Positions 2,706-41,657 of a stretch of 64,000 nucleotides of DNA are shown piece after piece. Every line of letters starts with the position of its first letter. Position 1 is the first letter of the stretch. A model generated the notes under the pieces. The model was not told the DNA's origin and made no database searches. It was given only the letters and a program-made list of their open reading frames with translations. Origin of the DNA: a virus; the IMG/VR virus record IMGVR_UViG_3300022927_001391, positions 41,169 to 105,168 of that record. One strand, given 5' to 3'. The translations under genes were made by a program, and so were the position numbers.

Positions 2706-3329
2706 ATGTTGAAGTTACTAGAAGGTGTAGATCGCAAGTTGGTTAATCAGCTTGTTATCATGCACGTAATCGTAATTGCACTTTCAAATTACTTGGTGCA
2801 GTTCAAGTTTAACCTGTTCCCAGGTGCTAACTTGCCATTCTTTGGTGAGTTTCCACTTGCAGTTGCAGCATTTACATTTCCAATTGTAGTTGTTGCCACT
2901 GACTTGACCGTCCGTATGGTGGGCAAGGAAGCAGGCAGGGCAGTTGTTGCCCTAGCAGTCATCCCAGCAATCATTGTAAGTATTTTGGTTGTTTGGGGCG
3001 GCGGTGCACCAGTTGAGAAGGCACTACGTATTGGTGCAGCAAGTGGTGTTGCATATGGCGTTGGTACAATGCTAGACGTTTATGTATTCCAGCATATTCG
3101 TGAGAAGTTCACAGAGATGTGGTGGGCTGCTCCAGCATTTTCAACAGTCTGTGCAAACGTACTAGACACTTATGCGTTCTTCTATACAGCATTTTATCCA
3201 GCACCTTGGGTACATGCTGTTGCGTTCAACCAAACAATTACAAAGATCGTTGTAGGGTTGATTGTGTTCCTACCAGCATATGGTTTCCTACTAGGCCATC
3301 TGCGTAAGAAACTAGGGCGTACTCTATAA
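2706..3329 (+). CDS. yhhQ: preQ0/preQ1 (queuosine precursor) transporter, VUT family
   Basis: Multi-TM protein; SNYLVQ, AFTFP..VATDLTVR, LDVYVF match YhhQ; adjacent to folE. Confidence 0.85.
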   Translation: MLKLLEGVDRKLVNQLVIMHVIVIALSNYLVQFKFNLFPGANLPFFGEFPLAVAAFTFPIVVVATDLTVRMVGKEAGRAVVALAVIPAIIVSILVVWGGGAPVEKALRIGAASGVAYGVGTMLDVYVFQHIREKFTEMWWAAPAFSTVCANVLDTYAFFYTAFYPAPWVHAVAFNQTITKIVVGLIVFLPAYGFLLGHLRKKLGRTL

Positions 3330-4113: not shown

Positions 4114-7100
4114 ATGACTTATAAGACACTAGCAAGCGCATTGCTCGCCACTACAATGCTGACAGCGTGTCAGGGTGGCGGAAGCGCAGTTAACACAGTA
4201 AAGCGTGAACTTAGTCCTACAGCGAATATCAATTTTGCTGCTATCTCAGGTGAAATTTCTGCTCTAGAGGCAGCAGTAATGGAAGCACAGGGCGCATCAA
4301 GCCTTAGTGCAATCCTTAATCCTACACAAGCAGACAAACATATGGCAGGAGACATTGTCAGCAAGATTGACAATGTTATAGCTAGTTGGGATAGCCATAA
4401 GGCAGAAATGAATGCCAAACTCTTGGCAGTAAAACTAGCTGATCCTGACTTTCAGAAAGCTGAAGCTGTAGTAAACATCCTCAAAAATCAGGTGCGTCCA
4501 CTTGTTGTTAACGTAACTGAAGGCAAGGCTTACGATACTACCAAGTTTGTCTTTATGGAAAAGAAAGAATCACTGGATAAGGTTATTGAAGATACTAAAA
4601 AGGATATCTTTAATAATGTTGTACCAACTCTTATTAGCTCAAGCACAAGCGCAGTAAAGGTATCTGAAACTACAGCTACAAGTTCGGCAGAGCGTATTAG
4701 TGAAACCGTTGTTACAGACGGTGAGCAGACAGTGCGTGGCGGCACTGGAATTAGTGACCTAACTCGTACTGCTAGCTGGACACGCACTACAACTAAGAAG
4801 ATGGTATATGATCGTAGCTGGAGTGTTACATTACAGAACGTAACAACCTCTGTATTCAGCGATGGTACAACTAAGACTGAAAATGGTGCAGAACGAGAAG
4901 TTCCTTATAAGGTAACTCTTGATGCATCACCGCAGGTAAGTACTGAATCGCTATCTAAAACTATTGCTTACAGTGTTAAAGAAAATAACGATCCTGCAAT
5001 TACGGTTACACGCGGTTCAGCGTCAGTCGAGAATGTATACGAAGATCGTGTAGAGAAGGTTACACAGAGTGATGGTAGCATTCTACACAATACGATTCGT
5101 AAGACAACTACAACGACTACCACGCCAGTTACTACTACTAAAACTTATCCTAAGATCAGCGTCTATACATATGAGGATGGACACTCGTTCACTCATGATG
5201 CTACGGATGAAGTTATTAGTAGTGTGGAAAACGAAGTAGTAGTAACTACTAGTGAGTCCACTATTAACTCAACTACTGAACATGTGGTTACCAAGGAAAC
5301 AACAACAAACGAAATCATTACTGAAGTAGTAGAGAGCGAGCCGGTATTTGATACTGTTTATGAGGATAAAACTACAACTGAAACAGTTGATAGCAAAATC
5401 ATTACAACAGTTACTCGTTACTATACCACTACAGCCACAGTAACAACTACTACTACCACAAAAACTACTCCAGTCACCAAGCAGATTTGGACTGATGGTA
5501 CTGAGAAGATTATTCGTGGTGACACTGTTACTGATGTAAAGACTGCTAGTACTGTTGCCAAGGATACCTGGACCAAGGTAATGAGCACCACAACCACAGA
5601 TGCGCCGGCTGATACTACGCCTATTGCTGACGATCACCCGGATATGGGAACTCGCACAGCAGGTTATAATACTGATCCAACAAGTTATCGTACATCAGAA
5701 TTTACAGGCACTAAAGGCGTAAACTTTCTGAGTGCTGTTAAAGCAGATGTTGCTTACTCACGTGGTTGGACAGGTAAAGGCAGTCTAATTACCATTGCTG
5801 ATACTGGCTGGGACAGAGATCATACAGATCTTTCTAGTGCGGTGAAGCATGAGTATAATACACTAACTGGCGGCACTAACACTTTTATGGATGACAACGT
5901 TGGTCACGGTAGTCATGTGTTGGGCATCGCGGCTGGGCGTAAGAACGGGTCAGGCATCCACGGTGTTGCATTCGATGCAGACGTAGCTGTAGTTAAGGTG
6001 ACTGACAGCACTGTTTATAGCTTCCAGCGAGCTAGAGCTGGCGCAGCATGGGCCAGAGATTTGGGTAGTATTGCTTTCAGTGCCAGTGCAAACTGGAATG
6101 AAGACAGTGCGTTCAGAAGCAGTATCGTAAATATCGGTTCTGGAATGAATTACAGTAATCACTGGTACTACGGTGAGAATGGATACAATGGTGCTGTAGA
6201 CGAAGCCAAGTTGTGGGCGACTGCACTAGGTAGCGAACAGATCCTTGTGAACAGTGCTGGTAACTTTGCTAAAGACTATGTATCAGGCAGTGCACAGATG
6301 GCCCATGCTACTGATGCAAATGGAAACCTTATTATGGGCGGACGCATGCTGATTGTTGGTAGCTATGATGTTACTAACAATAAAATCTCTAGTTTCAGCA
6401 ACAAGGCTGGTACTGTTTGTGCCACCTGGGACTTTACAAATAATCTCTGTAAAGATGCTGCAAGGGCTAGCGACTTCTATATCCTTGCTCCAGGCGAACG
6501 TATTGAAAGTGCTTACAAGGATGGCACAACTGTAACAATGAGTGGTACAAGTATGGCTGCTCCTGTGGTTACAGGATCACTTGCTATCCTACACCAGATG
6601 TGGCCACATATGAAAGGTGAAAACCTCGTTAAACTTGTTCTGCAGACTACTAACAAGGACCTGCCAGGTTACACTGTGGAAACACATGGACAAGGCATGT
6701 TGGACTTGGACAAGGCTACACAGCCTGTAGGTGCAACAGGTATTCCAACAAGCGGGCGTACGAGTGGTGCTATTGCTAACCTTGAAACACTAAGTGGTGG
6801 CGCTGCTGTCGGAAGTATTAGTAGCGATGCATTTGCGGCACTAAGTAATGTTACGGTGCTTGATAGCTTTGAGCGTGATTTTACAATCAATCTAAACAAC
6901 ACTCAAGCTATTGATACTCGTCCTGGATCGTCAACAGAAGCACTAAGTTTTGGTGCAAACTATGACGGTTATTGGAATCTTGCTAATGCCGGCGAAGGCA
7001 CTAGTGACTTGTTTGGTATTAGGACATCATTCAAGTTTGACCCAGATGCTAAAGCCAATGGCGACTGGGGCATGCGTACAGAGTATGATGTGCATAGTAG

Positions 7101-7662
7101 CGAAGAAACTACTATTACTGCCGCACTTGGAATGATTAAGGAGACAGGTAAGTTCCTTAACAACGTTCAGGAAGGCTTTATGGGAGTTGGTGAGTCACAC
7201 ACCACAAACTATGCAGGCTTGCGTCTCAATCACAAGTTTGATGAGAACTGGTTTGGGTTTGGTAACTTCCAGTTGGGCATGACAGACGTTGAGTCATCCA
7301 AGGAGTTTAGTCTAGTAACTGGGTACAGCACCCTAGTAAGTAACAGTTGGGGTGTCGGTGCAGGTTACAAGTTTACTAACGGGTGGACTGTTGGCGCTAA
7401 CTTTAGTCAGCCAATGACAGTTACAAGCGGTAAGATGAACTACAAGGTTCCAGTAGGACGTACACTTGACGGACAGGTATTATTTAATGAAGGAAGTGCT
7501 GATGCAAGTACGAAAAATATTGAATATGATACCGGTTTGTTTGTAAAATATAATGTAAACAATGTTGCACTTGCTGGCTATGCAGAGCATCGTAGCAATG
7601 TTGCAGGTGTCTCAGGTAACAATGAAGTTAACCTAGGCATGAAAGTGAACTTGAAGTTCTAA
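4114..7662 (+). CDS. Lipoprotein S8 (subtilisin-like) serine protease with Thr-rich stalk and autotransporter-like C-terminal beta-barrel
   Basis: Lipobox LTA-C; catalytic IADTG, GHGSHVLG, NSAGN, SGTSMAAP; C-terminal alternating beta strands ending KVNLKF. Confidence 0.85.
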   Translation: MTYKTLASALLATTMLTACQGGGSAVNTVKRELSPTANINFAAISGEISALEAAVMEAQGASSLSAILNPTQADKHMAGDIVSKIDNVIASWDSHKAEMNAKLLAVKLADPDFQKAEAVVNILKNQVRPLVVNVTEGKAYDTTKFVFMEKKESLDKVIEDTKKDIFNNVVPTLISSSTSAVKVSETTATSSAERISETVVTDGEQTVRGGTGISDLTRTASWTRTTTKKMVYDRSWSVTLQNVTTSVFSDGTTKTENGAEREVPYKVTLDASPQVSTESLSKTIAYSVKENNDPAITVTRGSASVENVYEDRVEKVTQSDGSILHNTIRKTTTTTTTPVTTTKTYPKISVYTYEDGHSFTHDATDEVISSVENEVVVTTSESTINSTTEHVVTKETTTNEIITEVVESEPVFDTVYEDKTTTETVDSKIITTVTRYYTTTATVTTTTTTKTTPVTKQIWTDGTEKIIRGDTVTDVKTASTVAKDTWTKVMSTTTTDAPADTTPIADDHPDMGTRTAGYNTDPTSYRTSEFTGTKGVNFLSAVKADVAYSRGWTGKGSLITIADTGWDRDHTDLSSAVKHEYNTLTGGTNTFMDDNVGHGSHVLGIAAGRKNGSGIHGVAFDADVAVVKVTDSTVYSFQRARAGAAWARDLGSIAFSASANWNEDSAFRSSIVNIGSGMNYSNHWYYGENGYNGAVDEAKLWATALGSEQILVNSAGNFAKDYVSGSAQMAHATDANGNLIMGGRMLIVGSYDVTNNKISSFSNKAGTVCATWDFTNNLCKDAARASDFYILAPGERIESAYKDGTTVTMSGTSMAAPVVTGSLAILHQMWPHMKGENLVKLVLQTTNKDLPGYTVETHGQGMLDLDKATQPVGATGIPTSGRTSGAIANLETLSGGAAVGSISSDAFAALSNVTVLDSFERDFTINLNNTQAIDTRPGSSTEALSFGANYDGYWNLANAGEGTSDLFGIRTSFKFDPDAKANGDWGMRTEYDVHSSEETTITAALGMIKETGKFLNNVQEGFMGVGESHTTNYAGLRLNHKFDENWFGFGNFQLGMTDVESSKEFSLVTGYSTLVSNSWGVGAGYKFTNGWTVGANFSQPMTVTSGKMNYKVPVGRTLDGQVLFNEGSADASTKNIEYDTGLFVKYNVNNVALAGYAEHRSNVAGVSGNNEVNLGMKVNLKF

Positions 7663-7674
7663 GGAGAAAAGGTA

Positions 7675-8133
7675 TTGAACCTAACTACGCTGACATATGA
7701 AAATGTAGAAGCACTACAGTTTGATACCAACCACGACCCCGTGAGACCCGAGCTTGACCTTAATTTTAGGTTGGGCCCGGGTCGTCGGGTTTATGTGTTG
7801 GAAACGGACGGTAAGTATCAGGCAGCAATTTGCGTTGCCTATACTAATGAAGTACCAACTACTGTAAAGGAACTTGACCTTATGAGTCAGGCTGCTTGTC
7901 AGGAAGATCAACACGGTTCTATTTGCGTAGCATATACAGTTTGGAGTCGTGCGCCACGTGCTGGCAGAGACGTTGTTTTTCGTTTGCTAGATGAATGTCG
8001 TGCAAATGATAAAGTCAAACGTCTTATTACACTAAGTCCAAAAACGGATATGGCACGGAGGTTTCACTTAAACAATGGAGCAGTTACTTTGCAGAACAAT
8101 ACTGCAACTGATAACTACGAATACAGTTTATGA
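7675..8133 (+). CDS. GNAT-like phage protein
   Basis: AYTVWS..PRAGR and TLSPKT.MARRFHL.NGA resemble GNAT motifs A/B; TTG start after AAGGAG. Confidence 0.5.
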   Translation: MNLTTLTYENVEALQFDTNHDPVRPELDLNFRLGPGRRVYVLETDGKYQAAICVAYTNEVPTTVKELDLMSQAACQEDQHGSICVAYTVWSRAPRAGRDVVFRLLDECRANDKVKRLITLSPKTDMARRFHLNNGAVTLQNNTATDNYEYSL

Positions 8134-8567
8134 ATATGTTCAAAGATAGGAAACGTGTAATCCTAGATCGCATTGGGCAGAAGCCCTACTTGGTTAGGTA
8201 TTACTTGTTTCTAAAAGATCGTAAATGGTTTCCATTTAATGTATTTTTACATAAGTTTTTACAAAGCGATCCGGATGAACTACACGATCATCCCTGGCCC
8301 TACTTCACGCTAATCTTACGTGGGGGTTATTGGGAGACTACTCCTAAAGGACGCTTCTGGCGTGGTCCAGGACACATGCGTTTTAGCGGTCCTAAGAGTC
8401 TACATCGTGTAGAACTAGAACCAGGAGTATGTGCTTGGTCACTATTCATTCCTGGTCCTAAACTACGTGAGTGGGGTTTCATTGTCAACGGCAAATGGAT
8501 GCACAATGAAAAGTATTTTGAATGGCGTAAGCAAAAGGTGAGAGATGAAAAAATTATATCTGTCTAA
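8130..8567 (+). CDS. Cupin-fold phage protein
   Basis: LHDHPW...GGYWE...HRVEL metal-binding cupin pattern. Confidence 0.65.
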   Translation: MNMFKDRKRVILDRIGQKPYLVRYYLFLKDRKWFPFNVFLHKFLQSDPDELHDHPWPYFTLILRGGYWETTPKGRFWRGPGHMRFSGPKSLHRVELEPGVCAWSLFIPGPKLREWGFIVNGKWMHNEKYFEWRKQKVRDEKIISV

Positions 8568-9057
8568 TCGAGATATTGAAAAGGGTGTACATAACGTTAT
8601 AAAGCAAATGTATGCTGACAACTGGCGGCCCGATTATATTGTAGGTATTACCAGAGGTGGATTAATTCCTGCTGTTCTAATGAGTCATCTTACAGGTATT
8701 AAAATGCACACACTGGATGTTCGTTTGCGTGATGGCGATGAACAAGAATCCAACTGTTGGATGGCAGAAGATGCATTTGGTATTTTCCAAATGGGTGGCA
8801 TATATGAAGATAAGAAAATTCTTATCCTAGACGATATTAACGATAGTGGTGCTACATTCCAATGGATTAAAGAAGATTGGCCGGCAGGCTGTCATCCAAA
8901 TGAACACCGATGGGATAAAGTTTGGAATCAGAATGTTCGCTTTGCAACTATTGTAAACAATCTTGCAAGTCCATTTAACATCGATTATACAAGCATTGAA
9001 ATTAACAAAGCTGAAGAAGATACATGGGTCGTATTCCCCTATGAGGAGTGGTGGTGA
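8545..9057 (+). CDS. Type I phosphoribosyltransferase (Gpt/Hpt-like)
   Basis: VGITRGGLIPA, ILILDDINDSGAT (PRPP loop), WVVFPYE. Confidence 0.85.
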   Translation: MKKLYLSNRDIEKGVHNVIKQMYADNWRPDYIVGITRGGLIPAVLMSHLTGIKMHTLDVRLRDGDEQESNCWMAEDAFGIFQMGGIYEDKKILILDDINDSGATFQWIKEDWPAGCHPNEHRWDKVWNQNVRFATIVNNLASPFNIDYTSIEINKAEEDTWVVFPYEEWW

Positions 9058-9419
9058 TGATTGAACTCTTAATAGCACTGCTAGTTAAGCACTGGCTCAG
9101 CGACTTCTGTTTACAAACTCCGTGGATGATCCAGGCAAAAAGTAAACCATTTGGTCTAGGTGGACTGATCCATGCAGCTATACACGGTGTCTTTACATTT
9201 GTTATTTGTTATTATTTTATTGGTTGGCCTTTTGCTCTATTTGTTGGATTAGCTGATTTCGCCGTACACTACACTATTGATTATTGTAAAGAACTAGTAT
9301 CGCGTGTTATGAAACTGACACCAGCACATCAGCAGTATTGGATATTGTTTGGTTTTGATCAACTATTACATATGTTAACATATGTTGCTATTTGGAGTTA
9401 TGCACGTGGCATTATTTGA
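9048..9419 (+). CDS. DUF3307-like membrane protein
   Basis: KHWLSDF.LQ, HAAIHG, HYTIDY.K, GFDQLLH His/Asp motifs in TM helices. Confidence 0.7.
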   Translation: MVVMIELLIALLVKHWLSDFCLQTPWMIQAKSKPFGLGGLIHAAIHGVFTFVICYYFIGWPFALFVGLADFAVHYTIDYCKELVSRVMKLTPAHQQYWILFGFDQLLHMLTYVAIWSYARGII

Positions 9420-9981
9420 AACACACAAAGACTGGATCTCAGAGGATGAACATGGCATGTTACAAGCATTGGTGTTGTATGCTCCACGCTGGCGTTTTGG
9501 TCAGGTAAGCGACAATACAATCCAACCAAACTATCCCATGTGGTTCCAAAACTTTTGGGATATTAGAACATTTGAGTTCAAACCAGATCAAGAGATAGTG
9601 ACCAATCTGTTACGTTCACTAAAAGATAGATTTTTAGAGTTATGCCCGGGCAATTATAAACTTGTTAGGTTTATGGCCAGTAGTAATACGTTTGGCATTG
9701 ATGGTGATATCCATACAGACTGGCCACATCCTGATGTAAGTATTACAGGTGTACTTTATACAGACAAGGTATGGGAACAGAACTGGGGCGGGGAAACGGC
9801 CTTTTATAAGGATGGTGTCGTAGAAGCTAGCGAATATGAACCCAGAAAGCTTATTACATTTGATAGTAGTATTGCCCATGTAGGCAAAGGGCCGCAGCGA
9901 CGTTGTAAGGAAATGAGAACAATTATAGCGTTTCAAGCAGTTAGCGAAGATGCTCTAAATGCTAAAATGAGAAAGAATTAA
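9400..9981 (+). CDS. 2OG-Fe(II) oxygenase (prolyl-hydroxylase-like)
   Basis: HTD...WGGET...FDSSIAH...R facial triad and 2OG Arg; start adjusted to the ATG after GGAG. Confidence 0.8.
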   Translation: MHVALFETHKDWISEDEHGMLQALVLYAPRWRFGQVSDNTIQPNYPMWFQNFWDIRTFEFKPDQEIVTNLLRSLKDRFLELCPGNYKLVRFMASSNTFGIDGDIHTDWPHPDVSITGVLYTDKVWEQNWGGETAFYKDGVVEASEYEPRKLITFDSSIAHVGKGPQRRCKEMRTIIAFQAVSEDALNAKMRKN

Positions 9982-10802
9982 TGATCATAACTGGCGATGG
10001 TGGATTAGATAACTGGTATAATGTCACTGTAAATACGTCATTGAACACATTTGAGGTTAATTTTAATCACAAGTCTCCGGCTCGACAACTGAATTTTTTT
10101 GAAGCTGCTGATTACACTGCAAGAACAATAGCTGAAAAATACAAAGATATCTTCCTAGGACTTAGTGGAGGCATGGATAGTCAATTTGTTGCTGAAACTT
10201 TGTATAAAAATAATATTAACTTTACACCATTAATAGGAATAAACCCTACTAATAATGATCATGAATTTGCTATAGATTGGTGTAATGCGCGGAATATAAA
10301 ATCTATCATTCTTGACTTAGAATTTTATTCACAAGATATTTTAAAAATTTATACGACCTTTTTAAAAAAAGTTCCGTTTGTTAATATAGGAAATTGCATA
10401 GATCTTTTTTTAAGTAGTATTGCAAAAAAACATTCTGGTCATTTAATAGTCGGTGGTCCTACACTTCCTTTAACACCTTATCACCCAAAGCAAGCTAGTA
10501 AAGAACCCATTTATTCTGTAGAGATAAGTGAATTTGCTCTTGAGTTGACCAATCAACTAATTGGTGGATTCTTCTTCTTTACTCCCGAAATTCTACTATC
10601 ACAGGCAATCAATCTAGATATTACAAAGACGGATGATTACTCTCGAGCTGCTTTATATAATTTTCCTGTCAGACATAAGACACTAGAATATAGATTATTT
10701 CCAGATTCTATTCATCTTAAACTAGTACATATAACTAAAAATAGAAAAATCAATAACCAAGATTGGTCAAAAACTAATCTCATTAACTTACTTCAGAATT
10801 AA
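9981..10802 (+). CDS. PP-loop (adenine nucleotide alpha-hydrolase) family protein
   Basis: LGLSGGMDS motif; AT-rich gene; lacks the QueC C-terminal Cys cluster. Confidence 0.55.
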   Translation: MIITGDGGLDNWYNVTVNTSLNTFEVNFNHKSPARQLNFFEAADYTARTIAEKYKDIFLGLSGGMDSQFVAETLYKNNINFTPLIGINPTNNDHEFAIDWCNARNIKSIILDLEFYSQDILKIYTTFLKKVPFVNIGNCIDLFLSSIAKKHSGHLIVGGPTLPLTPYHPKQASKEPIYSVEISEFALELTNQLIGGFFFFTPEILLSQAINLDITKTDDYSRAALYNFPVRHKTLEYRLFPDSIHLKLVHITKNRKINNQDWSKTNLINLLQN

Positions 10803-10803
10803 A

Positions 10804-10832
10804 TTGACTCTCAATCATAAATATCTTACAAT
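10804..10832 (+). promoter_or_regulatory. sigma70-type promoter of queD with embedded late-like CATAAATA
   Basis: TTGACT (10804-10809), 17 bp, TACAAT (10827-10832); CATAAATA at 10816-10823. Confidence 0.7.
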
Positions 10833-10843
10833 GTAATTACATT

Positions 10844-10901
10844 AGAGGACTAAGGTGTTCGACCCTCTTTAAATATTCCGCACACTCCATAACCAAGGAG
10901 T
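10844..10901 (+). ncRNA. Candidate preQ1-I-like riboswitch variant in the queD 5' UTR
   Basis: P1 AGAGG (10844-48)/CCTCT (10864-68); loop ends ...AC; AU-rich tail; loop GGTGT can pair with ACACT (10882-86), which overlaps an ACTCC/GGAGT anti-SD hairpin. Confidence 0.45.
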
Positions 10902-10907
10902 ATAAAC

Positions 10908-11381
10908 ATGGCAAAATATATTAGTACAAAAACATACAGGCATTTAGGTCCAGTAGCATACAGACAGTGGAGAGCAGATTCACACTGCAATCTTATCCAC
11001 GGATACGCATTAAGTTTCCATTTTGAATTTGAAACTGATGACCTAGATGCTCGTAACTGGGTAGTAGACTTTGGTGGATTACGTCCACTAAAGGATAGCT
11101 TAGAAGATTGGTTTGATCACACTCTGCTAGTAGCACAGGATGATCCAGACCGCGACACGCTACTAGAACTAGGCAAGAAAGGCCTAGCAAAGATTACAGA
11201 AGTTGAAAAGACTGGATGTGAAGGTCTGTCAGACTTTTTGTATGAATACGTAAACACAATATTTTTACCTAGTTGGGAACCTGGCACTAGGGTATGGTGC
11301 TGTAAGGTTGAGGTAAGAGAAACTGACTCAAATATGGCTATGCGAGTTGGTCACAGAGAAGATGGAGAATTCGATGTTTAA
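10908..11381 (+). CDS. queD: 6-carboxy-5,6,7,8-tetrahydropterin synthase
   Basis: HCNLIHGY, VVDFGGL, FDHT, GCE, VRET T-fold PTPS motifs; next to queE. Confidence 0.9.
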   Translation: MAKYISTKTYRHLGPVAYRQWRADSHCNLIHGYALSFHFEFETDDLDARNWVVDFGGLRPLKDSLEDWFDHTLLVAQDDPDRDTLLELGKKGLAKITEVEKTGCEGLSDFLYEYVNTIFLPSWEPGTRVWCCKVEVRETDSNMAMRVGHREDGEFDV

Positions 11382-11562
11382 ATGCATTATGAAATGGCTA
11401 GGAGTTGGAGACACACCTGCTGTTATTACAGAAGCTGAGCTTAACAAGATGACAAAGAAGCAAGTTGATGACTGGGCAGCAGATCATGGTATCAACCTCG
11501 ATCGTCGTCTTACAAAGGCTAAGATGATTGATGAACTAAAAAAACACGTAACTGTAGACTAA
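11374..11562 (+). CDS. Small protein with a HeH/Rho-N-like helical motif
   Basis: ELNKMTKKQVDDWAADHGINLDRRLTKAKMIDEL pattern; ATG 11374 after GGAG. Confidence 0.55.
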   Translation: MFKCIMKWLGVGDTPAVITEAELNKMTKKQVDDWAADHGINLDRRLTKAKMIDELKKHVTVD

Positions 11563-11571
11563 GAGGCGTCA

Positions 11572-12435
11572 ATGAAAGTAAGATATACTGAAGCGTTTTA
11601 TTCAGTTCAAGGAGAAGGTCGCTGGACAGGTGTGCCCAGTGTATTCCTTCGTATGTATGGTTGTAACTTTACTTGTCCTAAGTTTGGTATTGCTAGGAAC
11701 AGTAACGAAACAGCAGAGCCTCAGATCCAAAAGATTGTAGATGAGATTGATAACTATGATACACTTGAGGATCTCCCACTTGTGACTGTAGGGTGCGATA
11801 GCTATGCTGCTTGGCACCCTGCATTCAAACGTTTTCAACATGATGTAGACATTGATCAGCTGGTTGATGATCTACTTGCACTTACACCAACAGGTGCATG
11901 GTCATTGGATAATGGTCAGGATATCCATTTGGTAATCACAGGCGGTGAGCCTCTATTAGGTTGGCAACGAGCATATATACAGTTGCTAGAACATCCACGC
12001 ATGAAGGACTTGAAGAATGTCACGTTCGAAACTAATACTACACAATCTCTGTCAGAGGATTTCAAAACGTACCTCACAGATAATCAACAGGTACACATTA
12101 CATTCTCTTGCTCCCCTAAACTATCGGTTAGTGGACATACTTGGGTTGATGCTATCAAGCCTGATGTTGCTGTTAAGTACGCTAGTGTTCCTAACAGCCA
12201 CTTGTATCTTAAGTTCGTTGTTTCTGATGATGTTGACGTGGCAGAAGTTGATAGAGCTGTTGCAGAATATAGATCTGCGGGACTTGAAGCGCCGGTTTAC
12301 CTCATGCCTGTTGGCGGTACGACAGACAGTTACTTCAAAAACGGTCGTCAAGTCGCAGAGCTCGCCCTCGAAAAAGGCTACAGATATAGCCCACGCCTCC
12401 ACGTCGACGTCTTCGGTAACGCCTGGGGAACCTAA
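11572..12435 (+). CDS. queE: 7-carboxy-7-deazaguanine synthase (radical SAM)
   Basis: EAFYSVQGEG..G.PSVFLR..GCNFTC, GCDS, ITGGEPLL, FETN, SPKL, YSPRLH. Confidence 0.9.
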   Translation: MKVRYTEAFYSVQGEGRWTGVPSVFLRMYGCNFTCPKFGIARNSNETAEPQIQKIVDEIDNYDTLEDLPLVTVGCDSYAAWHPAFKRFQHDVDIDQLVDDLLALTPTGAWSLDNGQDIHLVITGGEPLLGWQRAYIQLLEHPRMKDLKNVTFETNTTQSLSEDFKTYLTDNQQVHITFSCSPKLSVSGHTWVDAIKPDVAVKYASVPNSHLYLKFVVSDDVDVAEVDRAVAEYRSAGLEAPVYLMPVGGTTDSYFKNGRQVAELALEKGYRYSPRLHVDVFGNAWGT

Positions 12436-12468
12436 CTTAGAAAATAAGTTACGTAAAGCTGGTGCAAT

Positions 12469-13026
12469 ATGAGAACAGTTTGGGTAAGACACGGACAAAG
12501 CGAATATAATGCTAAAAATTTAGCAACGGGTTGGCACGATCCTGATCTTACCCAACTTGGGGTAGAACAGGCATTTGAAACAGCTAGAATTTTAGCTCAA
12601 AGATACACAATGATCGCTAGTATACATACTAGCGATCTTCGTAGAGCAGTACAGACAGCTAGTATAATTTTACAAAGCTCGCCATGGTTTGTTGAGACAG
12701 AAATAGATAGTAGATTGCGTGAACGTGACTATGGTGATTGGAGCGGTAAAAACAAGGATGAAAACCGTTTAAGTGTAGGAGATGAAAGATTTTTATCTAT
12801 ACGCCGAGGCTGGGACATTGCTCCCCCTAACGGTGAGAGTTTGAAAGATACTGCTAGTAGAGTAGCAAATTATTTGGACAATATAGAACAAAGTAATCTT
12901 CCGATTATTTTTGTTTGTCACGGAAATACTATAAGAGCAGCAAGTGTGATTTTTGGAAAAAATACACCGGAATCTGTTGTAGATTGGGAAATAGAGACTG
13001 GAGGTTTCATAGAATGGGAATACTAG
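12469..13026 (+). CDS. Histidine phosphatase / dPGM-type phosphoglycerate mutase
   Basis: RHGQSEYN, TSDL.RA, LRERDYG, PPNGESLKDT, CHGNTIR. Confidence 0.85.
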   Translation: MRTVWVRHGQSEYNAKNLATGWHDPDLTQLGVEQAFETARILAQRYTMIASIHTSDLRRAVQTASIILQSSPWFVETEIDSRLRERDYGDWSGKNKDENRLSVGDERFLSIRRGWDIAPPNGESLKDTASRVANYLDNIEQSNLPIIFVCHGNTIRAASVIFGKNTPESVVDWEIETGGFIEWEY

Positions 13027-13382
13027 ACGACGCAAAAAGTGCTATGGGTTTGGGTAAAGCCAAACGTGTTGAGGAACCTAAGCCACGCGCACCTAAAAAA
13101 TCAGAAAAGGAAATTGCTACAGAAAAGGGTGAGCCCTGGGTTAGTGTCCTTAGTGTAGAAGTTGATCAGGAAAATCCTGGCAATGGTGCTTTTGAATTAG
13201 ACTGGAACCAACCTTTTATTAAATTGCTTTGGAAAAAAGGTTACCGTGACGAAAATGAAAACGATATGGTAGATCGCTGGTTTCAGGATGTCTGCAGGCA
13301 CGTGGTTATGGAAAGCTATGAAAAAGATGAAGCTATGGTAACTCGTAACGACTTAGGTGATGGCAGAGTAGAGTATAAATGA
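13014..13382 (+). CDS. Conserved hypothetical phage protein
   Basis: Start reassigned to ATG 13014 after GGAGG; ATEKGEPWV...FELDWN...DRWFQDVCR. Confidence 0.65.
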   Translation: MGILDDAKSAMGLGKAKRVEEPKPRAPKKSEKEIATEKGEPWVSVLSVEVDQENPGNGAFELDWNQPFIKLLWKKGYRDENENDMVDRWFQDVCRHVVMESYEKDEAMVTRNDLGDGRVEYK

Positions 13383-13495
13383 TACGAGCAGTTCCTGCTG
13401 AATATGCAAACCACTATTTAAATGGTAGCTGGGTTTTTAATTCTCTTATCACATTTTTAATACATAATGCCCTGCTATAAAAGAAGTAAATTATA

Positions 13496-14269
13496 ATGCT
13501 TGTCTATGTTAATGGAGATAGTCATAGTGCAGGAGCAGAGCTAGTAGAAGATTTCTGCTTTGCCATGGACGACAGAAGATACATTCATCTAGGTCGCACA
13601 CCACACCCTGAAGCTATACCCTATACCTTTGGATATTTTCTCAGCCAGAGTTTAAATGCTGGTTACTTCTTAGATGCAGAAAGTGCAGGTAGTAACCAGA
13701 GAATACTAAGAACTACAACTACATTCTTAGAAGAAAAATATAGTTCTCATACCACCATAATTATTGGCTGGAGTACATGGGAAAGAGAAGAATGGCTACA
13801 CGAAGATTTATACTATCAGGTTACAGCAAGCGGTACTGATAGTGTTCCAGCAGAACTTGTAGACAAATATAAACAATGGGTAACAGAGCAAACCCAACAA
13901 GAGTTGGCTAAAAAACAAAGGTACTGGCACAATAAAATCTATGAATTCCATTTAGATTTACAAAGTAAAAATATCTCACATTTGTTTTTTAATAGTTACA
14001 ATCACTTTAATATGTCTGATGCAGAAAAGTTTGATTGGCAAAACTGTTATATAAATCCCTATGAAGACGCAGGCACTTATTTTAACTGGTGTAAGGAACA
14101 CGGCTTTAAAACAGTCAACAATGGTTTACATTATGGAAGAGATGCCCAAATAGCCTGGGGAAAGTATCTGTTGCCCTGGTTGACAAACACCAATCAAAGT
14201 AGTATAATACAAGCAGTAAAGGTTAATCCCAACCAACAAGTAAAATTTGGACCTACGAGGACTGGATGA
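13496..14269 (+). CDS. SGNH/GDSL-like hydrolase or acyltransferase
   Basis: NGDSH, AGSNQRILR, C-terminal HYG. Confidence 0.65.
   Translation: MLVYVNGDSHSAGAELVEDFCFAMDDRRYIHLGRTPHPEAIPYTFGYFLSQSLNAGYFLDAESAGSNQRILRTTTTFLEEKYSSHTTIIIGWSTWEREEWLHEDLYYQVTASGTDSVPAELVDKYKQWVTEQTQQELAKKQRYWHNKIYEFHLDLQSKNISHLFFNSYNHFNMSDAEKFDWQNCYINPYEDAGTYFNWCKEHGFKTVNNGLHYGRDAQIAWGKYLLPWLTNTNQSSIIQAVKVNPNQQVKFGPTRTG
14180..14208 (+). promoter_or_regulatory. Consensus sigma70 promoter upstream of the exonuclease gene
   Basis: TTGACA (14180-85), 17 bp, TATAAT (14203-08). Confidence 0.75.
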
Positions 14270-15270
14270 CGACTTATCTACTAGTTGATACCGCTAACAC
14301 ATTCTTTCGTGCAAGACACGTTGCCCATCGTGGCATGGATTCATGGACTAAACTGGGCTTTGCAATTCATGTAACACTTAATGCTGTAAACAAAGCACAC
14401 AGAATCGCCGGGGCTGATCATGTAATATTTGCGCTGGAAGGCAGAAGCTGGCGTAAGGACTATTACACACCTTATAAGCGCAACAGGTCAGATGCAAGAG
14501 CAGCACTAACAGAAGCAGAGCAGGAAGAAGATAAACTGTTCTGGGAGGCATATGATGAACTTACGACATTCCTAAAAGATAGTTCAAATTGCAGCGTCCT
14601 TAGATGCGAAATTGCGGAGGCTGACGATATTATCGCACGGTTTATTAATATGCACCCTAACGACAACCACGTTATTGTTAGCAGTGATACTGATTTTGTT
14701 CAGCTAGTTAGTGATAACGTTCGTCAATACAACGGTATTCAAAATCATATGATTACCCTAGAGGGTATCTTTGACGATTATGGCAAGCCTGTTAAGGATA
14801 AAAAAACTGGGGAAGCAAAGATTGCTCCAGATCCAGAGTGGCTGCTATTTGAAAAATGCATGCGTGGTGATCCTACTGACAATGTATTCAGTGCTTATCC
14901 AGGTGTCCGAACCAAAGGCAGTAAAAATAAGGTAGGACTATTAGAAGCATATGAGGATCGTGCCAATCGCGGTTATAACTGGAATAACATGATGCTACAG
15001 CGTTGGGTAGATCATAACGGTGAAGAGCATCGTGTTCTCGACGACTACGAGCGCAATCGCACACTGGTGGATCTCACAGCACAGCCTGCAGAGATCAAAG
15101 AGTATGTTGACGAAACAATCCGTTCGCAGGTTACGGACAAGCACATGGGTATGGTTGGTGCTAAGTTCCTAAAGTTCTGCGGTAAGTATGAACTCAATAG
15201 GCTAGCTGAAGACGCTACAAAGTTTGCAGAATGGTTGAACAAAGGCTATGAATATGAAGTTACAAGCTAA
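14266..15270 (+). CDS. rnh: T4-like RNase H / 5'-3' flap exonuclease
   Basis: LLVD, SWRK..Y..YK.NR, EADDIIA, SSDTDFVQL, GDPTDNV motifs of the FEN/PIN fold. Confidence 0.88.
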   Translation: MTTYLLVDTANTFFRARHVAHRGMDSWTKLGFAIHVTLNAVNKAHRIAGADHVIFALEGRSWRKDYYTPYKRNRSDARAALTEAEQEEDKLFWEAYDELTTFLKDSSNCSVLRCEIAEADDIIARFINMHPNDNHVIVSSDTDFVQLVSDNVRQYNGIQNHMITLEGIFDDYGKPVKDKKTGEAKIAPDPEWLLFEKCMRGDPTDNVFSAYPGVRTKGSKNKVGLLEAYEDRANRGYNWNNMMLQRWVDHNGEEHRVLDDYERNRTLVDLTAQPAEIKEYVDETIRSQVTDKHMGMVGAKFLKFCGKYELNRLAEDATKFAEWLNKGYEYEVTS

Positions 15271-15724
15271 AGCTATTGTAGATAATACCTTCTGGATTAT
15301 CGAACGCAATGGCGAAAAGGTAGGTACCCTTCGCCACAGTAATGACTATGTGCTAACAGTAAATAGTAAAAACTTCCGTTATCCGGATTTGAAATCGCTG
15401 AGTACTAAGTTGGATATAGACTTTCAAAATAATTTAGTGAGGATTGAACCTGCCGGCAAAAAGCAGTTTGATGTACATGGGTATCCATGCAAGACATTAC
15501 CATTTAATGGTATTTTTGACCTAAAGCGTAAACTACCATTGTATACCAAGACTGAAAAAAGCCAATGCTTCTACTGCGCTGGATATTATGCAATCAATTT
15601 TGAGAACGGCTGGGTTCCTGCATATTGCCCTAAACTTATTACTTTGGGTAGAAACGAACATAAGGGACCATACAAAACAAAGTTAGAGATGCAGGAAGTT
15701 ATTAGAAACCTATCAAATGGCTAA
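15248..15724 (+). CDS. Hypothetical phage protein
   Basis: Coupled ORF; LPLYTK..KS.CFYCAGYY motif. Confidence 0.6.
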   Translation: MNMKLQAKAIVDNTFWIIERNGEKVGTLRHSNDYVLTVNSKNFRYPDLKSLSTKLDIDFQNNLVRIEPAGKKQFDVHGYPCKTLPFNGIFDLKRKLPLYTKTEKSQCFYCAGYYAINFENGWVPAYCPKLITLGRNEHKGPYKTKLEMQEVIRNLSNG

Positions 15725-15932
15725 AATCCCACACTTCGGCAATCTTGAAAAACTAGCAAGCAAATGTGCTTTAATTAAATCAGAAAATCTGATAATTAAT
15801 AAAACTGAAGCACAACACATTGCAATGGAATACCAGAAGCTTATTGGATACATAACTCAGATACAGGATGAGTTATTAGCTGAGCGAGAACGTCAGGCTA
15901 CTGAGATAGAGATCTTAGGTCCAAATTTTTAA
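15717..15932 (+). CDS. Hypothetical protein
   Basis: ORF overlapping the previous stop. Confidence 0.55.
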   Translation: MAKIPHFGNLEKLASKCALIKSENLIINKTEAQHIAMEYQKLIGYITQIQDELLAERERQATEIEILGPNF

Positions 15933-15951
15933 TAAACTACTCATATTTCCA

Positions 15952-15959
15952 GATAAATA
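15952..15959 (+). promoter_or_regulatory. Late-promoter-like GATAAATA
   Basis: One mismatch to T4 late TATAAATA, in the intergenic gap before 15985. Confidence 0.45.
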
Positions 15960-15984
15960 ATATTGTATTATAATTGGAAAATCC

Positions 15985-16281
15985 ATGAGTAGACCCAAGC
16001 CCACAGTTTTATTAGAAAAGGTTGATAAGCAGACTTACAAGTCTGATCAGGTCCTTGCTAGCGAAGGAATCTGGAGTGTATTCTATAAAAACCAACCTAT
16101 TAATCTAAAGAGTAGTAATATGCTTATTAGCTATCCTGGTCCTAAATATAAGAAGGTCTCATTCAGCAATCCAGGCCATGCTATAAATCTTGCCAAAAAG
16201 CTTAATAAGAATTTCAACTGCTCTGACTTCACGGTAGTATTACTGAGCAGTGGTGAGATCATCTACCCAGATGCCCAATAA
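15985..16281 (+). CDS. Conserved hypothetical phage protein
   Basis: MSRPKP...GPKYKKVSFSNPGHA.NLAKKLN; basic. Confidence 0.65.
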   Translation: MSRPKPTVLLEKVDKQTYKSDQVLASEGIWSVFYKNQPINLKSSNMLISYPGPKYKKVSFSNPGHAINLAKKLNKNFNCSDFTVVLLSSGEIIYPDAQ

Positions 16282-16639
16282 ACAAGAATACACACAAGCA
16301 TTTCTAAAAAACATTGAAACTACTACTGTGCCCGCCGGTGACGAGCTTGCATTCTTTTGGCTTAATATTAGAGATACTGGAGGGTTAAGGCTAACTGAAA
16401 ATGGGTATTTTTGTCTAGTAGAAGATATTAAGTTAGAAAGCTGGGAAATAGACATCCGTGAACAAAAGATAACCCAAAGGTTCCTTTTAGACTTGGATCG
16501 TTTTATGAACTGCCCCTACTATGTGCAGCGCGGCCGGTGGCCCAAAGTTATCCTGTTTAGTGAACAAACCTATTTCTGGCTGGTACTACATAACCAGGAT
16601 TTTGAAAGGTTCTTAAATGCCAACAAAATATCGTCTTAG
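16271..16639 (+). CDS. Hypothetical phage protein
   Basis: GGLRLT..G, CPYY motifs; ATG 16271. Confidence 0.6.
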   Translation: MPNKQEYTQAFLKNIETTTVPAGDELAFFWLNIRDTGGLRLTENGYFCLVEDIKLESWEIDIREQKITQRFLLDLDRFMNCPYYVQRGRWPKVILFSEQTYFWLVLHNQDFERFLNANKISS

Positions 16640-16931
16640 ACACAATAAGCACCTAGAAAACTGTCAGTGGTTACATCTAATAAGTGTAGATTTCCCTGAA
16701 ACTCGTCATAGGCCTTATGATTATGATTACTGGGGATATCGTAACGTAGAAATAATTGACAGTGTAGAAGAACAAAAGGAAACCATCCTGGGCCTACTAC
16801 ACGAAAGTTATGGGCCGCAGGATGGTTTATGGAATATAAGATGGAGTGACGCAGGTGCAGACATCAGATTTAAAACTGAATCTGATGCTGCTAGTTTCCT
16901 GATGCTGTATACCCTTCAGCCTATTAGTTAA
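16617..16931 (+). CDS. Hypothetical phage protein
   Basis: ORF; C-terminal W..RW....IRF..E.DA..F.M pattern. Confidence 0.55.
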   Translation: MPTKYRLRHNKHLENCQWLHLISVDFPETRHRPYDYDYWGYRNVEIIDSVEEQKETILGLLHESYGPQDGLWNIRWSDAGADIRFKTESDAASFLMLYTLQPIS

Positions 16932-18216
16932 CCTTTTTGTCGTAATAAGCCCAGTTACCAAATGCTGGCTTGATGTTATCCGGACCATGGATAATAAACA
17001 CAGTATCGCAGTAGAATTCGTCACCCCAGGTACCACAGGGATAACCATCAGTAAACATCACAAACCGGTTAGGCTGGATGTCGTTGTCCTTCATAAATTT
17101 CCAGTTACATTCAAACATCGTACCGCCACCGCCCTGGGGCTCATATGTCATGATGTCGTCGATGTTGGTAGCGTCAAACTCAGCGTAGTTATAGACTTCG
17201 GTATCGAAGCACCAGAGCTTGATCTTGAAGTCTGTGTACATATCCATGATGGCCTTAATCTCGCTAAAGAAATCACGGGCCTGTTCGTTGCTGATGCTGC
17301 CGCTCATATCCACAGCAACCGCAATATCAATGGTAGTCTCAGGAACCATGCCGGGCAGCAGGAAGTCACTGCCCCAGCTCTTACGGCTACGGCGCATAAA
17401 ACTGTAGTCGCTTTTGATTGAGCTTTCAATGCTCATCGCAAGCATGCTGCGCCAGTCCATCTTGGGCTCAGTAAGATCCTTAACAATGCGAGCAACACCT
17501 GCAGGAAGGTTACCAGCGCCACCAGCCTGCTTGGCACTGTTGATTAATGCTTCCTTAATCTCATCACGGATCTTCTTGCGCTCTTCGTCAGAATAAGTGG
17601 GCTTACCCGAGCTCTTGAGGTTACCGTTCTCGTCCTCACTAATGCCGCCAGAACCGCCCTCGCCATCATCGCCTTCAAGATGCTCGTCCAGCAGCATATC
17701 AATATACTGCTCTAGATCAATCTTTTCAGCGTTGTCATAGAGATCGTCGTAAATCTCCTCCATGCTCATATTGTAGTACTTACGGTCATGTAGAGCAGGC
17801 ACTGTAGTAATAAGCTCACCAATGCGGCTCTGCACCAGATCTCCGTTTACAGCAAAGTCAGCAGCAATGTTCGCAATCTGAGCGTCATGTTTGTTGAGCT
17901 TGCTACGGCCCAGATGCTCGTAGACATTGTGAAGTACCTCATGCCCAAACAGGAACTCTACTTCCTTGCTCTTGAGCATGTTGATGAACTTGCTATTATA
18001 ATAGAAGTGGCGACCGTCAGTAGCTGCTGTGGGCAACCACTGATCTGCATTCACAAGCGGCAACCGAGTTGCCATATTACCAAACCATGCTGCCTTGAGA
18101 AGCAGGCTAACGCGAGCAGTAGTGAGCTTCTCGCGAGCATCTAGATCTTCCTGACGAACTGTCTCGAACCCCACAGGGAGGTTTACGTGCTTCTTGTTTG
18201 CTGTAGTCGTGGTCAT
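16924..18216 (-). CDS. DUF2201-like metallopeptidase-VWA domain protein
   Basis: TAATDG, HEVLH (HEXXH), NIAADFAVN, VDMSGS (MIDAS), GGGGT, FTDG. Confidence 0.85.
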   Translation of the reverse strand: MTTTTANKKHVNLPVGFETVRQEDLDAREKLTTARVSLLLKAAWFGNMATRLPLVNADQWLPTAATDGRHFYYNSKFINMLKSKEVEFLFGHEVLHNVYEHLGRSKLNKHDAQIANIAADFAVNGDLVQSRIGELITTVPALHDRKYYNMSMEEIYDDLYDNAEKIDLEQYIDMLLDEHLEGDDGEGGSGGISEDENGNLKSSGKPTYSDEERKKIRDEIKEALINSAKQAGGAGNLPAGVARIVKDLTEPKMDWRSMLAMSIESSIKSDYSFMRRSRKSWGSDFLLPGMVPETTIDIAVAVDMSGSISNEQARDFFSEIKAIMDMYTDFKIKLWCFDTEVYNYAEFDATNIDDIMTYEPQGGGGTMFECNWKFMKDNDIQPNRFVMFTDGYPCGTWGDEFYCDTVFIIHGPDNIKPAFGNWAYYDKKVN

Positions 18217-40729: not shown

Positions 40730-41657
40730 TGGCTAACTCTATCAAACGTTGTTGATTATTTTTAAGCCTGTCAGTTATAGTGTTGTAGTCTACAGGGTTT
40801 CGCATAAACTTTTGTAAACTATTAAAAACTTTATCCACTCTTATATAGCTGCTTTCGGTATCATAGGTTTTATCTAGTATATCATCGAACGTATCAAAAC
40901 CTAATTCTCTGAGATTACGCTCATAGTTAGGACTTCCTATTACTAGAAAAAGTCTACCGTAATATATTGGCCTAAATATTTTTTCTGTCATAAAAAAAGT
41001 TCCAGAAGCTATATTTGTTTCGCACACAATTTCAATAGCTATATTATTATACGTTTCATGCCAAATTGGATCCAAGTCAAATCTACAAATCTGTGTAAAT
41101 GTATCTTGTGTACCGAAATGAAAATTTTTATCTATAATATCACTATAGGGCAGGATTGGTTTTATTTCCTGCCATTTTTCGTTGTTTTCACAAATAAAGG
41201 GAGTGAAATCACAGTTGGATTCTAAAGTATTATTAATGTTTACATGGCAAGTAGCGATACAGTTTTGCATCTTTCTTGATTTCCAAAATGCATATAAACG
41301 TTCATTAGTACCTCTACCTGTAAACAAACCAAAATTATTTTTATATGGATTGTTGAAGTCAATAGGTTTTAAATTTTTTGGCAGTAGACGGTTTTTAACT
41401 GTATTTACAACAAATGTTTCACTTTTGCCTAGCCTATCTGTAGATTCAAAAGTTATATTACTATACGGAATATGAAGTTTATTGGCAATGTCTTTTACTA
41501 TATTTTCTATACCATTGGCAACAATATCCCAGCCATCAGTACCTAAACTTAAAACAATAGGTTTACCTGTTTTATGTATTGCTGCTATTTCTAGTGCTAG
41601 AAGATGAGTGTCTCTAATGTGACTAGCACCGCAGTATTTTGTTAAATCAATCTTCAC
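40722..41657 (-). CDS. GT-B/GT10-like glycosyltransferase
   Basis: EIVCET, TEKIFRPI, LRELGFDTF, YDTE; start probably GTG 41657. Confidence 0.55.
   Translation of the reverse strand: MKIDLTKYCGASHIRDTHLLALEIAAIHKTGKPIVLSLGTDGWDIVANGIENIVKDIANKLHIPYSNITFESTDRLGKSETFVVNTVKNRLLPKNLKPIDFNNPYKNNFGLFTGRGTNERLYAFWKSRKMQNCIATCHVNINNTLESNCDFTPFICENNEKWQEIKPILPYSDIIDKNFHFGTQDTFTQICRFDLDPIWHETYNNIAIEIVCETNIASGTFFMTEKIFRPIYYGRLFLVIGSPNYERNLRELGFDTFDDILDKTYDTESSYIRVDKVFNSLQKFMRNPVDYNTITDRLKNNQQRLIELANE

Follow-up and report, generated by a model that had tools for sequence, protein, structure and literature searches.

The leader of a queD gene from an uncultured phage contains a 43-nt H-type pseudoknot that is almost certainly a real, widespread, and uncatalogued RNA structure, present mostly in phage sequences. 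It lies at positions 10844-10886 of the stretch analyzed here, positions 41,169 to 105,168 of the IMG/VR record IMGVR_UViG_3300022927_001391, and this whole stretch of 64,000 nucleotides is referred to as the window. We consider it fairly probable that the knot is a metabolite-sensing ON riboswitch acting on queD, or on queD and queE together. We propose more tentatively that it represents a new and essentially phage-only riboswitch class, which as an ON switch would bind an intermediate or product of a 7-deazaguanine route lacking QueC and license translation of QueD and QueE. The leader occupies a gap of 105 bases between the stop codon of an open reading frame (ORF) at 9981-10802 and the ATG at 10908, and inspection of its sequence bears out all of the letters and coordinates named in an initial annotation of the region. 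Its elements are listed here.

10804-10832, + strand: sigma-70-like promoter, TTGACT (10804-10809) and TACAAT (10827-10832) separated by a 17-nt spacer, with 10 of 12 consensus matches
10844-10848, + strand: 5' strand of helix P1, AGAGG, pairing with 10864-10868
10849-10853, + strand: loop L1, ACUAA, starting with the N-C-U of the family, of which the C and U are invariant in alignment A2 (L1 length is variable in the family)
10854-10861, + strand: 5' strand of helix P2, GGUGU (10854-10858), the mismatched U10859, C10860, and G10861; the inner pair is G:C here
10862-10863, + strand: loop L2, AC, with the C invariant directly 5' of the P1 3' strand
10864-10868, + strand: 3' strand of P1, CCUCU
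10869-10878, + strand: loop L3, UUAAAUAUUC, with A invariant at positions 3, 5, and 7, and ending in UC
10879-10886, + strand: 3' strand of P2, C10879, G10880, the mismatched C10881, and ACACU (10882-10886); duplex estimate -6.2 kcal/mol
10884-10888, + strand: anti-Shine-Dalgarno (anti-SD) strand, ACUCC, with 10884-10886 common to P2; forms a hairpin in the minimum free energy (MFE) structure, -6.3 kcal/mol
10897-10901, + strand: Shine-Dalgarno (SD) sequence, GGAGU, pairing with ACUCC

In the window the loop of P1 is 15 nt long and ends in AC, and P2 is longer than had been annotated: C10860 pairs with G10880 and G10861 with C10879 beyond the U10859.C10881 mismatch, so that L2 consists only of AC and L3 of 10869-10878. 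In the family as a whole, P1 has 5 bp, the top two of which are invariant G-C pairs, and P2 has seven pairs in all, comprising five variable pairs and, with an invariant U.C mismatch, a C:G pair and an R:Y pair. L1 consists of N-C-U and 0 to 5 further nt, L2 of 2 to 3 nt, and L3 of 10 nt, in which invariant A's stand at alternate positions. From the position of the promoter, the transcript is predicted to start near 10839-10840.

By themselves the features of the window are no more than chance would provide, and it is the comparison across phages that lifts the motif above chance. The gapless alignment A2 contains 35 distinct 47-nt sequences, which leaves no room for fitting, and 96.7% of its 420 cells are paired, compared with 75.5 +/- 1.4 in shuffles (0 of 500 reach this value). 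Both sides have changed in nine of the 12 pairs, including three of the five P1 pairs, and the covariation score is 0.598, compared with 0.182 in shuffles (0 of 500) and at most 0.167 for structures slid by 1 to 3 columns. The covariance model R1 was built with P2 as its sole structure, and in the resulting alignment (A3; 82 distinct sequences) P1 is 98.5% paired although it was not fitted (100% in A2), all five outer P2 pairs covary, and the middle P1 pair is C:G in 49, A:U in 21, and U:A in 12 sequences. The MAFFT alignment A1, in which the P2 5' strand is one column off in the GC-rich group, was excluded from the pair counts, and alignment A4 was used solely for hit counts. The initial annotation had made its proposal hinge on homologous queD leaders, and in A2 and A3 both P1 and the pseudoknot are conserved and covary.

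The variants are readily seen in the leaders of QueD relatives, where P1 is AGAGG/CCTCT, AGCGG/CCGCT, or CCGG/CCGG and P2 is GGTGT/ACACT, GACAC/GTGTC, GGCAT/ATGCC, or GGCG/TGCC; AGUGG, UGCGG, ACCGG, and others are further P1 5' strands in the family. The loop TCG accompanies the tail CCGC in these leaders, and the loop TCA accompanies CTGC. G.U pairs are common and would be A.C on the other strand, and thus the structure belongs to the RNA of the + strand. At least 184 loci have A:U or G:C as the inner P2 pair, with A:U in most relatives. Scans of IMG/VR find the TCA...CTGC pattern in at least 116 stretches and TCG...CCGC in at least 118, and among the matches listed R1 matches 94 of 100 and 90 of 100 loci, respectively. 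Scans for the non-Watson-Crick combinations are complete and yield 31 stretches with TCA...CCGC and 22 with TCG...CTGC, with the motif in one of these 53 loci (L465); G.U at the inner pair is never seen in these scans, and A.C in that locus only. The motif is present in L465 as two copies 2.2 kb apart on the - strand (9176-9222 and 11408-11453), one canonical with a 3-nt L2 and the other with the inner A.C. The G:C inner form is joined with several P1 sequences (AGAGG, AGTGG, ACCGG, and AGCGG), and the change at this pair therefore arose more than once.

We note two groups of unusual leaders. One subgroup (L332, L353, L358, L389, L406, L410, L413, L418, and others) has the loop GGCA-UCG and the tail CCGC-CGCC, with an extra A.C beside the invariant U.C that always occurs with the stronger G:C inner pair, as if compensating. 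In L329, L397, and L426, the leader has GUGG...CCAC and a long L1 insertion (GAUGGAUUCAAGG...), and these fit the loop-and-tail pattern but not R1 at E<=0.01; an additional element may set these leaders apart as a variant.

A2 has 16 invariant positions, of which many are unpaired and found at the helix junction. The unpaired or mismatched invariants are the N-C-U of L1, the C of L2, the A-x-A-x-A and UC of L3, and the U.C mismatch. In the set ascertained through the protein (26 distinct sequences), A31, A33, A35, T37, and C38 are invariant.

R1 has 232 matches from phage loci, with 175 distinct sequences, and at least nine contigs among these loci were retrieved twice by different routes. All motif matches are on the strand of the gene, and the window has a single copy. 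A protein-led set was taken from 420 QueD relatives in IMG/VR, with the best 80 used (80 to 100% identical); L029 cannot be judged and was left out, and the motif is present in 48 of the 79 evaluable queD loci, 47 as full matches and one (L003) trimmed by the end of its contig. When both helices are left free, the loop-and-tail pattern has at least 121 matches in at least 120 stretches of bacterial and archaeal genomes, and both helices are present in one among the matches listed. That match (L300) is on a 5.5-kb contig of a Bacteroidetes metagenome bin (G044), with a second copy on another short contig. Contigs C2 and C25 of this bin (L300/L501 and L500) carry the motif at 61 and 36.3 bits and are the sole hint of a host; both are probably pieces of phage DNA that were binned together with a possible host. 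Searches with R1 did not find the motif in 150 further genomes from the same phylum as this bin, with G044 as the positive control, nor in 151 genomes from the phylum to which a Haemophilus genome belongs, where no positive control was detected.

The leader has no match to any Rfam 15 family, and nothing relevant was returned when two leaders were compared with GenBank phages by blastn, which is a weak test for an element of 45 nt. Sixteen Streptococcus blastn matches to the leaders at E = 0.5 lie within capsid genes and were discarded. No paper linking a riboswitch to phage 7-deazaguanine genes was found in the literature searched, and the available part of PMC4342423 merely cites a preQ1 review. 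We also note that one metatranscriptome contig (run X17, record 10) matches the 3' half of the leader (10870-10906), beyond which its sequence leads into another QueD N-terminus. An RNA library therefore contains a related phage that shares this leader.

The first ORF behind the motif is of the QueD type, as judged by the CxxxHG[YH] signature, in 183 of 188 distinct leaders, and is QueD-like in 136 of 141 by a strict motif finder with blast clustering. Another ORF comes first in the five exceptions, namely one of 58 aa (L080 and L081), one of 88 aa (L067), a cupin (L177), and an unnamed ORF of 243 aa (L188), and in L067, L080, and L081 queD is located 200 to 340 nt further downstream. The QueD proteins behind the motif have pairwise identities of 25.5 to 100% (median, 56.6%), a span that makes derivation of the motif alignments from one recent clone improbable. 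Single-sequence tblastn, which gives lower bounds, finds a QueE homologue downstream on the same strand in 54 of 140 motif loci and FolE upstream in 36; by the same search a small ORF is present in 20 of the 140. The second zinc-binding His is replaced by Tyr, giving CxxxHGY instead of the canonical CxxxHGH, in 130 of 131 full-length QueD-like proteins behind the motif. CxxxHGY was rejected as a marker of motif-linked QueD, as it is also present in motif-less relatives and in the QueD proteins of the cultured phages ACP17, X1, and BUDD. A sigma-70-like promoter ends no more than 20 nt before P1 in 30 of 123 distinct leaders, compared with nine of 615 control windows. In the remaining leaders the knot directly follows the stop codon of the preceding gene, a position that fits translational and not transcriptional control.

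The initial annotation held that P2 excludes a hairpin hiding the queD SD, and this is sustained by the sequence and its folding. P2 (approximately -6.2 kcal/mol as a duplex) and the anti-SD hairpin (-6.3 kcal/mol) are nearly isoenergetic in the window and share 10884-10886, and the probability that the SD is unpaired is 0.04 in the free fold compared with 0.70 when 10844-10886 is engaged. Among 188 distinct leaders, the duplex between the P2 3' tail and the leader's own ribosome site has a mean energy of -7.09 kcal/mol, compared with -6.15 +/- 0.10 for permuted partners (0 of 200 reach it). The pairing partner of the tail is the start-codon region in 120 of these, the SD in 38, both in 10, and the segment between the SD and start codon in one; the pairing is weak in 19. 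In an earlier set, a fixed register over the AUG gives at least six of eight pairs in 51 of 120 distinct leaders. Covariation with the tail is seen at the base preceding the AUG (C:G in 33, U:A in 8, and G:C in 7). The leader thus has generic features of riboswitches, with a covarying structured aptamer candidate in the leader of a single pathway and an exclusive platform pairing that shares aptamer nucleotides. The invariant unpaired junction nucleotides, the differing platforms on a constant core, and the near-isoenergetic states argue for an aptamer rather than a passive structure.

We propose that the RNA would act in cis at the 5' end of the message on translation of queD, or queD and queE. 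The P2 3' strand would double as one strand of an occluding helix, ACUCC/GGAGU over the SD in the window and over the start codon in many relatives. As the knot and the occluding helix are predicted to be mutually exclusive and about equally stable, whatever stabilizes the knot would free the ribosome site and make this an ON switch; the ON direction is a supported inference from the modeled folds. The stabilizer would most likely be a small molecule that binds at the unpaired conserved nucleotides. From the analogy to preQ1-I, we infer that this putative ligand would have a guanine-like face, come from the 7-deazaguanine/pterin pathway, and be read by the invariant C. Candidate ligands are dihydroneopterin triphosphate, CPH4, CDG, and 7-deazaguanine.

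The pathway encoded by the carriers bears on the choice of ligand. Full-length QueC was not found in 31 motif-bearing IMG/VR records (G001-G031), where the best partial match is 30 bits (PP-loop or C-terminal); these include two jumbo genomes estimated to be 98% and 100% complete. QueC is present, at 169.8 bits, in a relative without the motif. The carriers are similar in this respect to the QueC-less phages phiST and ACP17, with FolE, QueD, and QueE in the absence of QueC, together with a T-fold protein having the LxxxHRHxF signature of DpdL, a proposed CDG decarboxylase (PMC10516641). The word riboswitch has 0 occurrences in that paper, and unlike the carriers, ACP17 (the closest cultured QueD, at 72% identity) and the Xanthomonas phages X1 and BUDD, which have the closest cultured QueD genes, have no gap before queD able to hold the motif. 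In the record studied here, a 151-aa ORF from G000:C1:37087 onward, approximately 4 kb upstream of the window start, codes for a T-fold protein with LAHPHRHIF that is undetected by PF01242, and 13 loci have homologues of it approximately 4.7 kb upstream of the motif. Given the lack of full-length QueC and the presence of a DpdL-signature protein, the carriers probably make 7-deazaguanine rather than preQ0 or preQ1, as judged from their gene content, which would argue against preQ1 as the ligand and toward a pterin or 7-carboxy/7-deazaguanine intermediate.

The closest known RNA is preQ1-I (RF00522; types I to III in PMC11625349, also PMC10622847). According to the available part of PMC11625349, preQ1-I is an H-type pseudoknot with UC or AC before the P1 3' strand, in which the C is the specificity base, preceded by U in type I and by A in types II and III. 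An A-rich L3 docks in the minor groove of P1 over a conserved G-C floor, UU is atop P1 in types I and III, and the gene is turned OFF by a short P2 in which SD bases are buried. Like preQ1-I, the phage knot is a small pseudoknot of the H type whose 5-bp P1 has conserved G-C at its top; an invariant C immediately precedes the P1 3' strand, L3 has conserved A's, and the knot is located in leaders of 7-deazaguanine pathway genes with a predicted action on translation. The C at the specificity position is invariant in the 26 protein-ascertained sequences and in A2, with a putative role in reading the ligand. Of 104 distinct sequences, 100 have a 2-nt L2, and in these the base before this C is U in 72 cases, C in 19, and A in nine; the window has AC. 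In L3, A is invariant at three of the 10 places, with more A's at variable places. The phage knot differs, however, in having a P2 of seven pairs with an invariant U.C rather than about four pairs, an L1 of N-C-U plus 0 to 5 nt rather than UU or UC (starting with UCU in 41, ACU in 33, and CCU in 30 of 104 distinct sequences), an L2 of 2 to 3 nt, and an L3 of 10 nt with A at alternate places. It also differs in its SD, which is outside the knot (at least 10 nt downstream; 10 nt in the window) and would be freed and not buried by P2, predicting ON rather than OFF, and in its presence in phage contigs, whose carriers lack full-length QueC, and not in the bacterial genomes searched.

Covariance searches separate the two. 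RF00522 (gathering score, 39 bits) has no match in the window at its gathering score and none at E<=10 on 10780-10930 (151 nt), and over the whole 105-kb record at E<=10 it has three weak matches (13.6, 9.5, and 9.2 bits), none at the leader; the best of these (G000:C1:24844-24883; E = 0.25) is far below 39 bits and is taken as chance. RF00522 likewise has no match on the motif in 10 other loci, and it scores 40.5 to 46.8 bits on control RNAs of Bacillus, Listeria, and Neobacillus. R1 does not detect three bona fide preQ1-I RNAs, with chance-level matches only. The description of the leader as a preQ1-I-like pseudoknot upstream of queD thus holds for the H-type knot, which is conserved and covaries, but not for membership in RF00522, the Rfam model proposed as a check, which finds nothing at the leader. 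The AGAGG/CCUCU P1 cited there for Bacillus does occur in a preQ1-I RNA of a Bacillus sp. (L325), but the identity is coincidental, as P1 covaries within the phage family. Strict membership in preQ1-I is thus very doubtful, and the phage knot is not filed as a member; from its sequence it may work as a preQ1-I relative in which P2 is longer and the wiring is reversed.

A diverged but ordinary preQ1-I, binding preQ1 or preQ0 and turning queD OFF, would account for the H-type topology, the G-C-topped P1, the AC before the P1 3' strand of the window (as in types II and III), the A-containing L3, the 7-deazaguanine gene cluster, the identical P1 in Bacillus, and the partial match of R1 to a preQ1-I RNA over the P1 3' strand and L3 (4.5 bits, E = 5.9). 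We consider this quite improbable, as RF00522 and R1 fail to recognize each other's RNAs, P2 has seven pairs with a U.C, L1 is N-C-U and not UU, the SD would be freed by P2, and the carriers, in the absence of full-length QueC, probably make no preQ0 or preQ1. A better alternative, though still an unlikely one, is a cis-regulatory RNA that senses no metabolite, such as a protein operator (for example, in QueD or QueE autoregulation), a temperature or ion element, or a folding timer, in which the knot would form first on the nascent RNA and the message later refold to the occluded state. Small autoregulatory pseudoknots are present in phages, as in the T4 gene 32 leader; the evidence presented here is of structure and competing helices only, and the knot and anti-SD hairpin are nearly isoenergetic with no ligand. 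Against such an RNA are the 16 invariant positions in A2, many unpaired at the helix junction and including a cytosine at the preQ1-I specificity place (PMC11625349, available part), and the platforms on the SD or start codon that vary around a constant core, which is the usual pattern of aptamers. Moreover, no protein but QueD travels with the motif, with QueE and the small ORF found in 54 and 20, respectively, of the 140 loci by single-sequence tblastn.

Chance complementarity in an AT-rich gap, or a signal acting in DNA and not as an RNA fold, is the least credible explanation and would be most surprising. It finds some comfort in the window itself, where the folding energy of the leader is ordinary (MFE, -11.4 kcal/mol; z = -0.11; 85 of 200 shuffles fold as well) and promoter-like sites are no commoner than in shuffles (23 in 7000-17000 compared with 29.9 +/- 5.8). 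It is contradicted by the compensating changes in both helices, by the G.U pairs that would be A.C on the other strand, by the inner-pair scans, by the location of every match on the strand of the gene, and by the presence of both helices in one of the 121 bacterial pattern matches listed compared with 94 of 100 and 90 of 100 of the phage loci listed.

The unremarkable folding energy is one of several points that weigh against a metabolite-sensing ON riboswitch. In a crude two-state model of 188 leaders, clear opening of the ribosome site is predicted in 61, little change in 120, and closing in seven. An ON switch on a biosynthetic gene would be unusual, as all preQ1 classes described in the available part of PMC11625349 turn genes off. 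Thirty-one of the 79 evaluable related queD loci do not have the motif (no match at E<=1), with queD abutting the preceding gene, and the element is therefore dispensable. No cultured phage with the motif was found in the searches made. The A2 sequences were prefiltered for pairing (P1, 5 of 5; P2, at least 4 of 5), which inflates their percentage paired, although the contrast with the bacterial-genome null is unaffected. Two of the three locus sets were found using patterns that fix loop letters, and the loop conservation is that of the 26 distinct sequences ascertained through the protein. In three runs, metatranscriptome contigs start at 10847, 10857, and 10880 and extend into queD and queE, and 10354-10839 is uncovered by contigs in the four RNA runs examined, a weak hint of a start near 10839; these runs are assembled contigs, which cannot prove a transcript start, and the gap in coverage is by itself no proof.

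The record containing the window is a 105-kb fragment of an uncultured phage (completeness estimate, 29%) found in salt-marsh metagenomes. The genes of interest in the window are the following.

2011-2691: FolE
2706-3329: YhhQ/Vut_1 transporter
10908-11381, + strand: QueD-like gene, 157 aa, with the CxxxHGY signature (PF01242, 2.6e-14; phrog_2389, 8.7e-41)
11572-12435, + strand: QueE-like radical-SAM gene (phrog_2076, 9.2e-53; NCBIfam QueE models are under their cut-offs)

The queE gene is probably in one operon with queD. A protein with a PF00156 phosphoribosyltransferase domain (7.3e-14) is encoded at 8545-9057 amid the deazaguanine genes. The 273-aa ORF at 9981-10802, directly upstream of the leader, has only sub-threshold similarity to PP-loop ATPases. 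It was considered as a divergent QueC, but with nadE at 19.2 bits and NAD_synthase at 15.7 bits, both sub-threshold, and no match to PF06508, it is left unnamed.

A single H-type pseudoknot of 40 to 50 nt constitutes the whole aptamer in the Guanidine-III and SAM-II/SAM-V riboswitches, and Guanidine-III is a translational ON switch; these differ from the phage knot in gene context, and although all of them are Rfam families, none matched the leader. Riboswitches are described as "a rare feature in phages" in the available part of PMC9004378, where the glutamine riboswitches of marine phages belong to the glnA motif class common to bacteria. The queD-leader knot is unlike the glnA motif in that it was not found in the bacterial genomes searched, save on short contigs of one metagenome bin.

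If it is a riboswitch, it would provide the first known case of a metabolite-sensing RNA that controls the hypermodification of a viral genome. Phage riboswitches have so far been rare and taken from bacterial classes, as far as the available part of PMC9004378 describes them, and a phage-resident class controlling a DNA modification pathway used against host restriction would be new biology. It would also offer a version of the smallest known aptamer fold in which the logic is reversed and the ligand is perhaps new, useful both for insight into ligand recognition and for engineering, and as a 43-nt RNA with 175 natural variants it poses a directly testable question. The strict link with QueD in phages without full-length QueC offers an entry point to the dDG branch of 7-deazaguanine chemistry, which is poorly understood, and the ligand of the RNA would reveal which metabolite the phage monitors.

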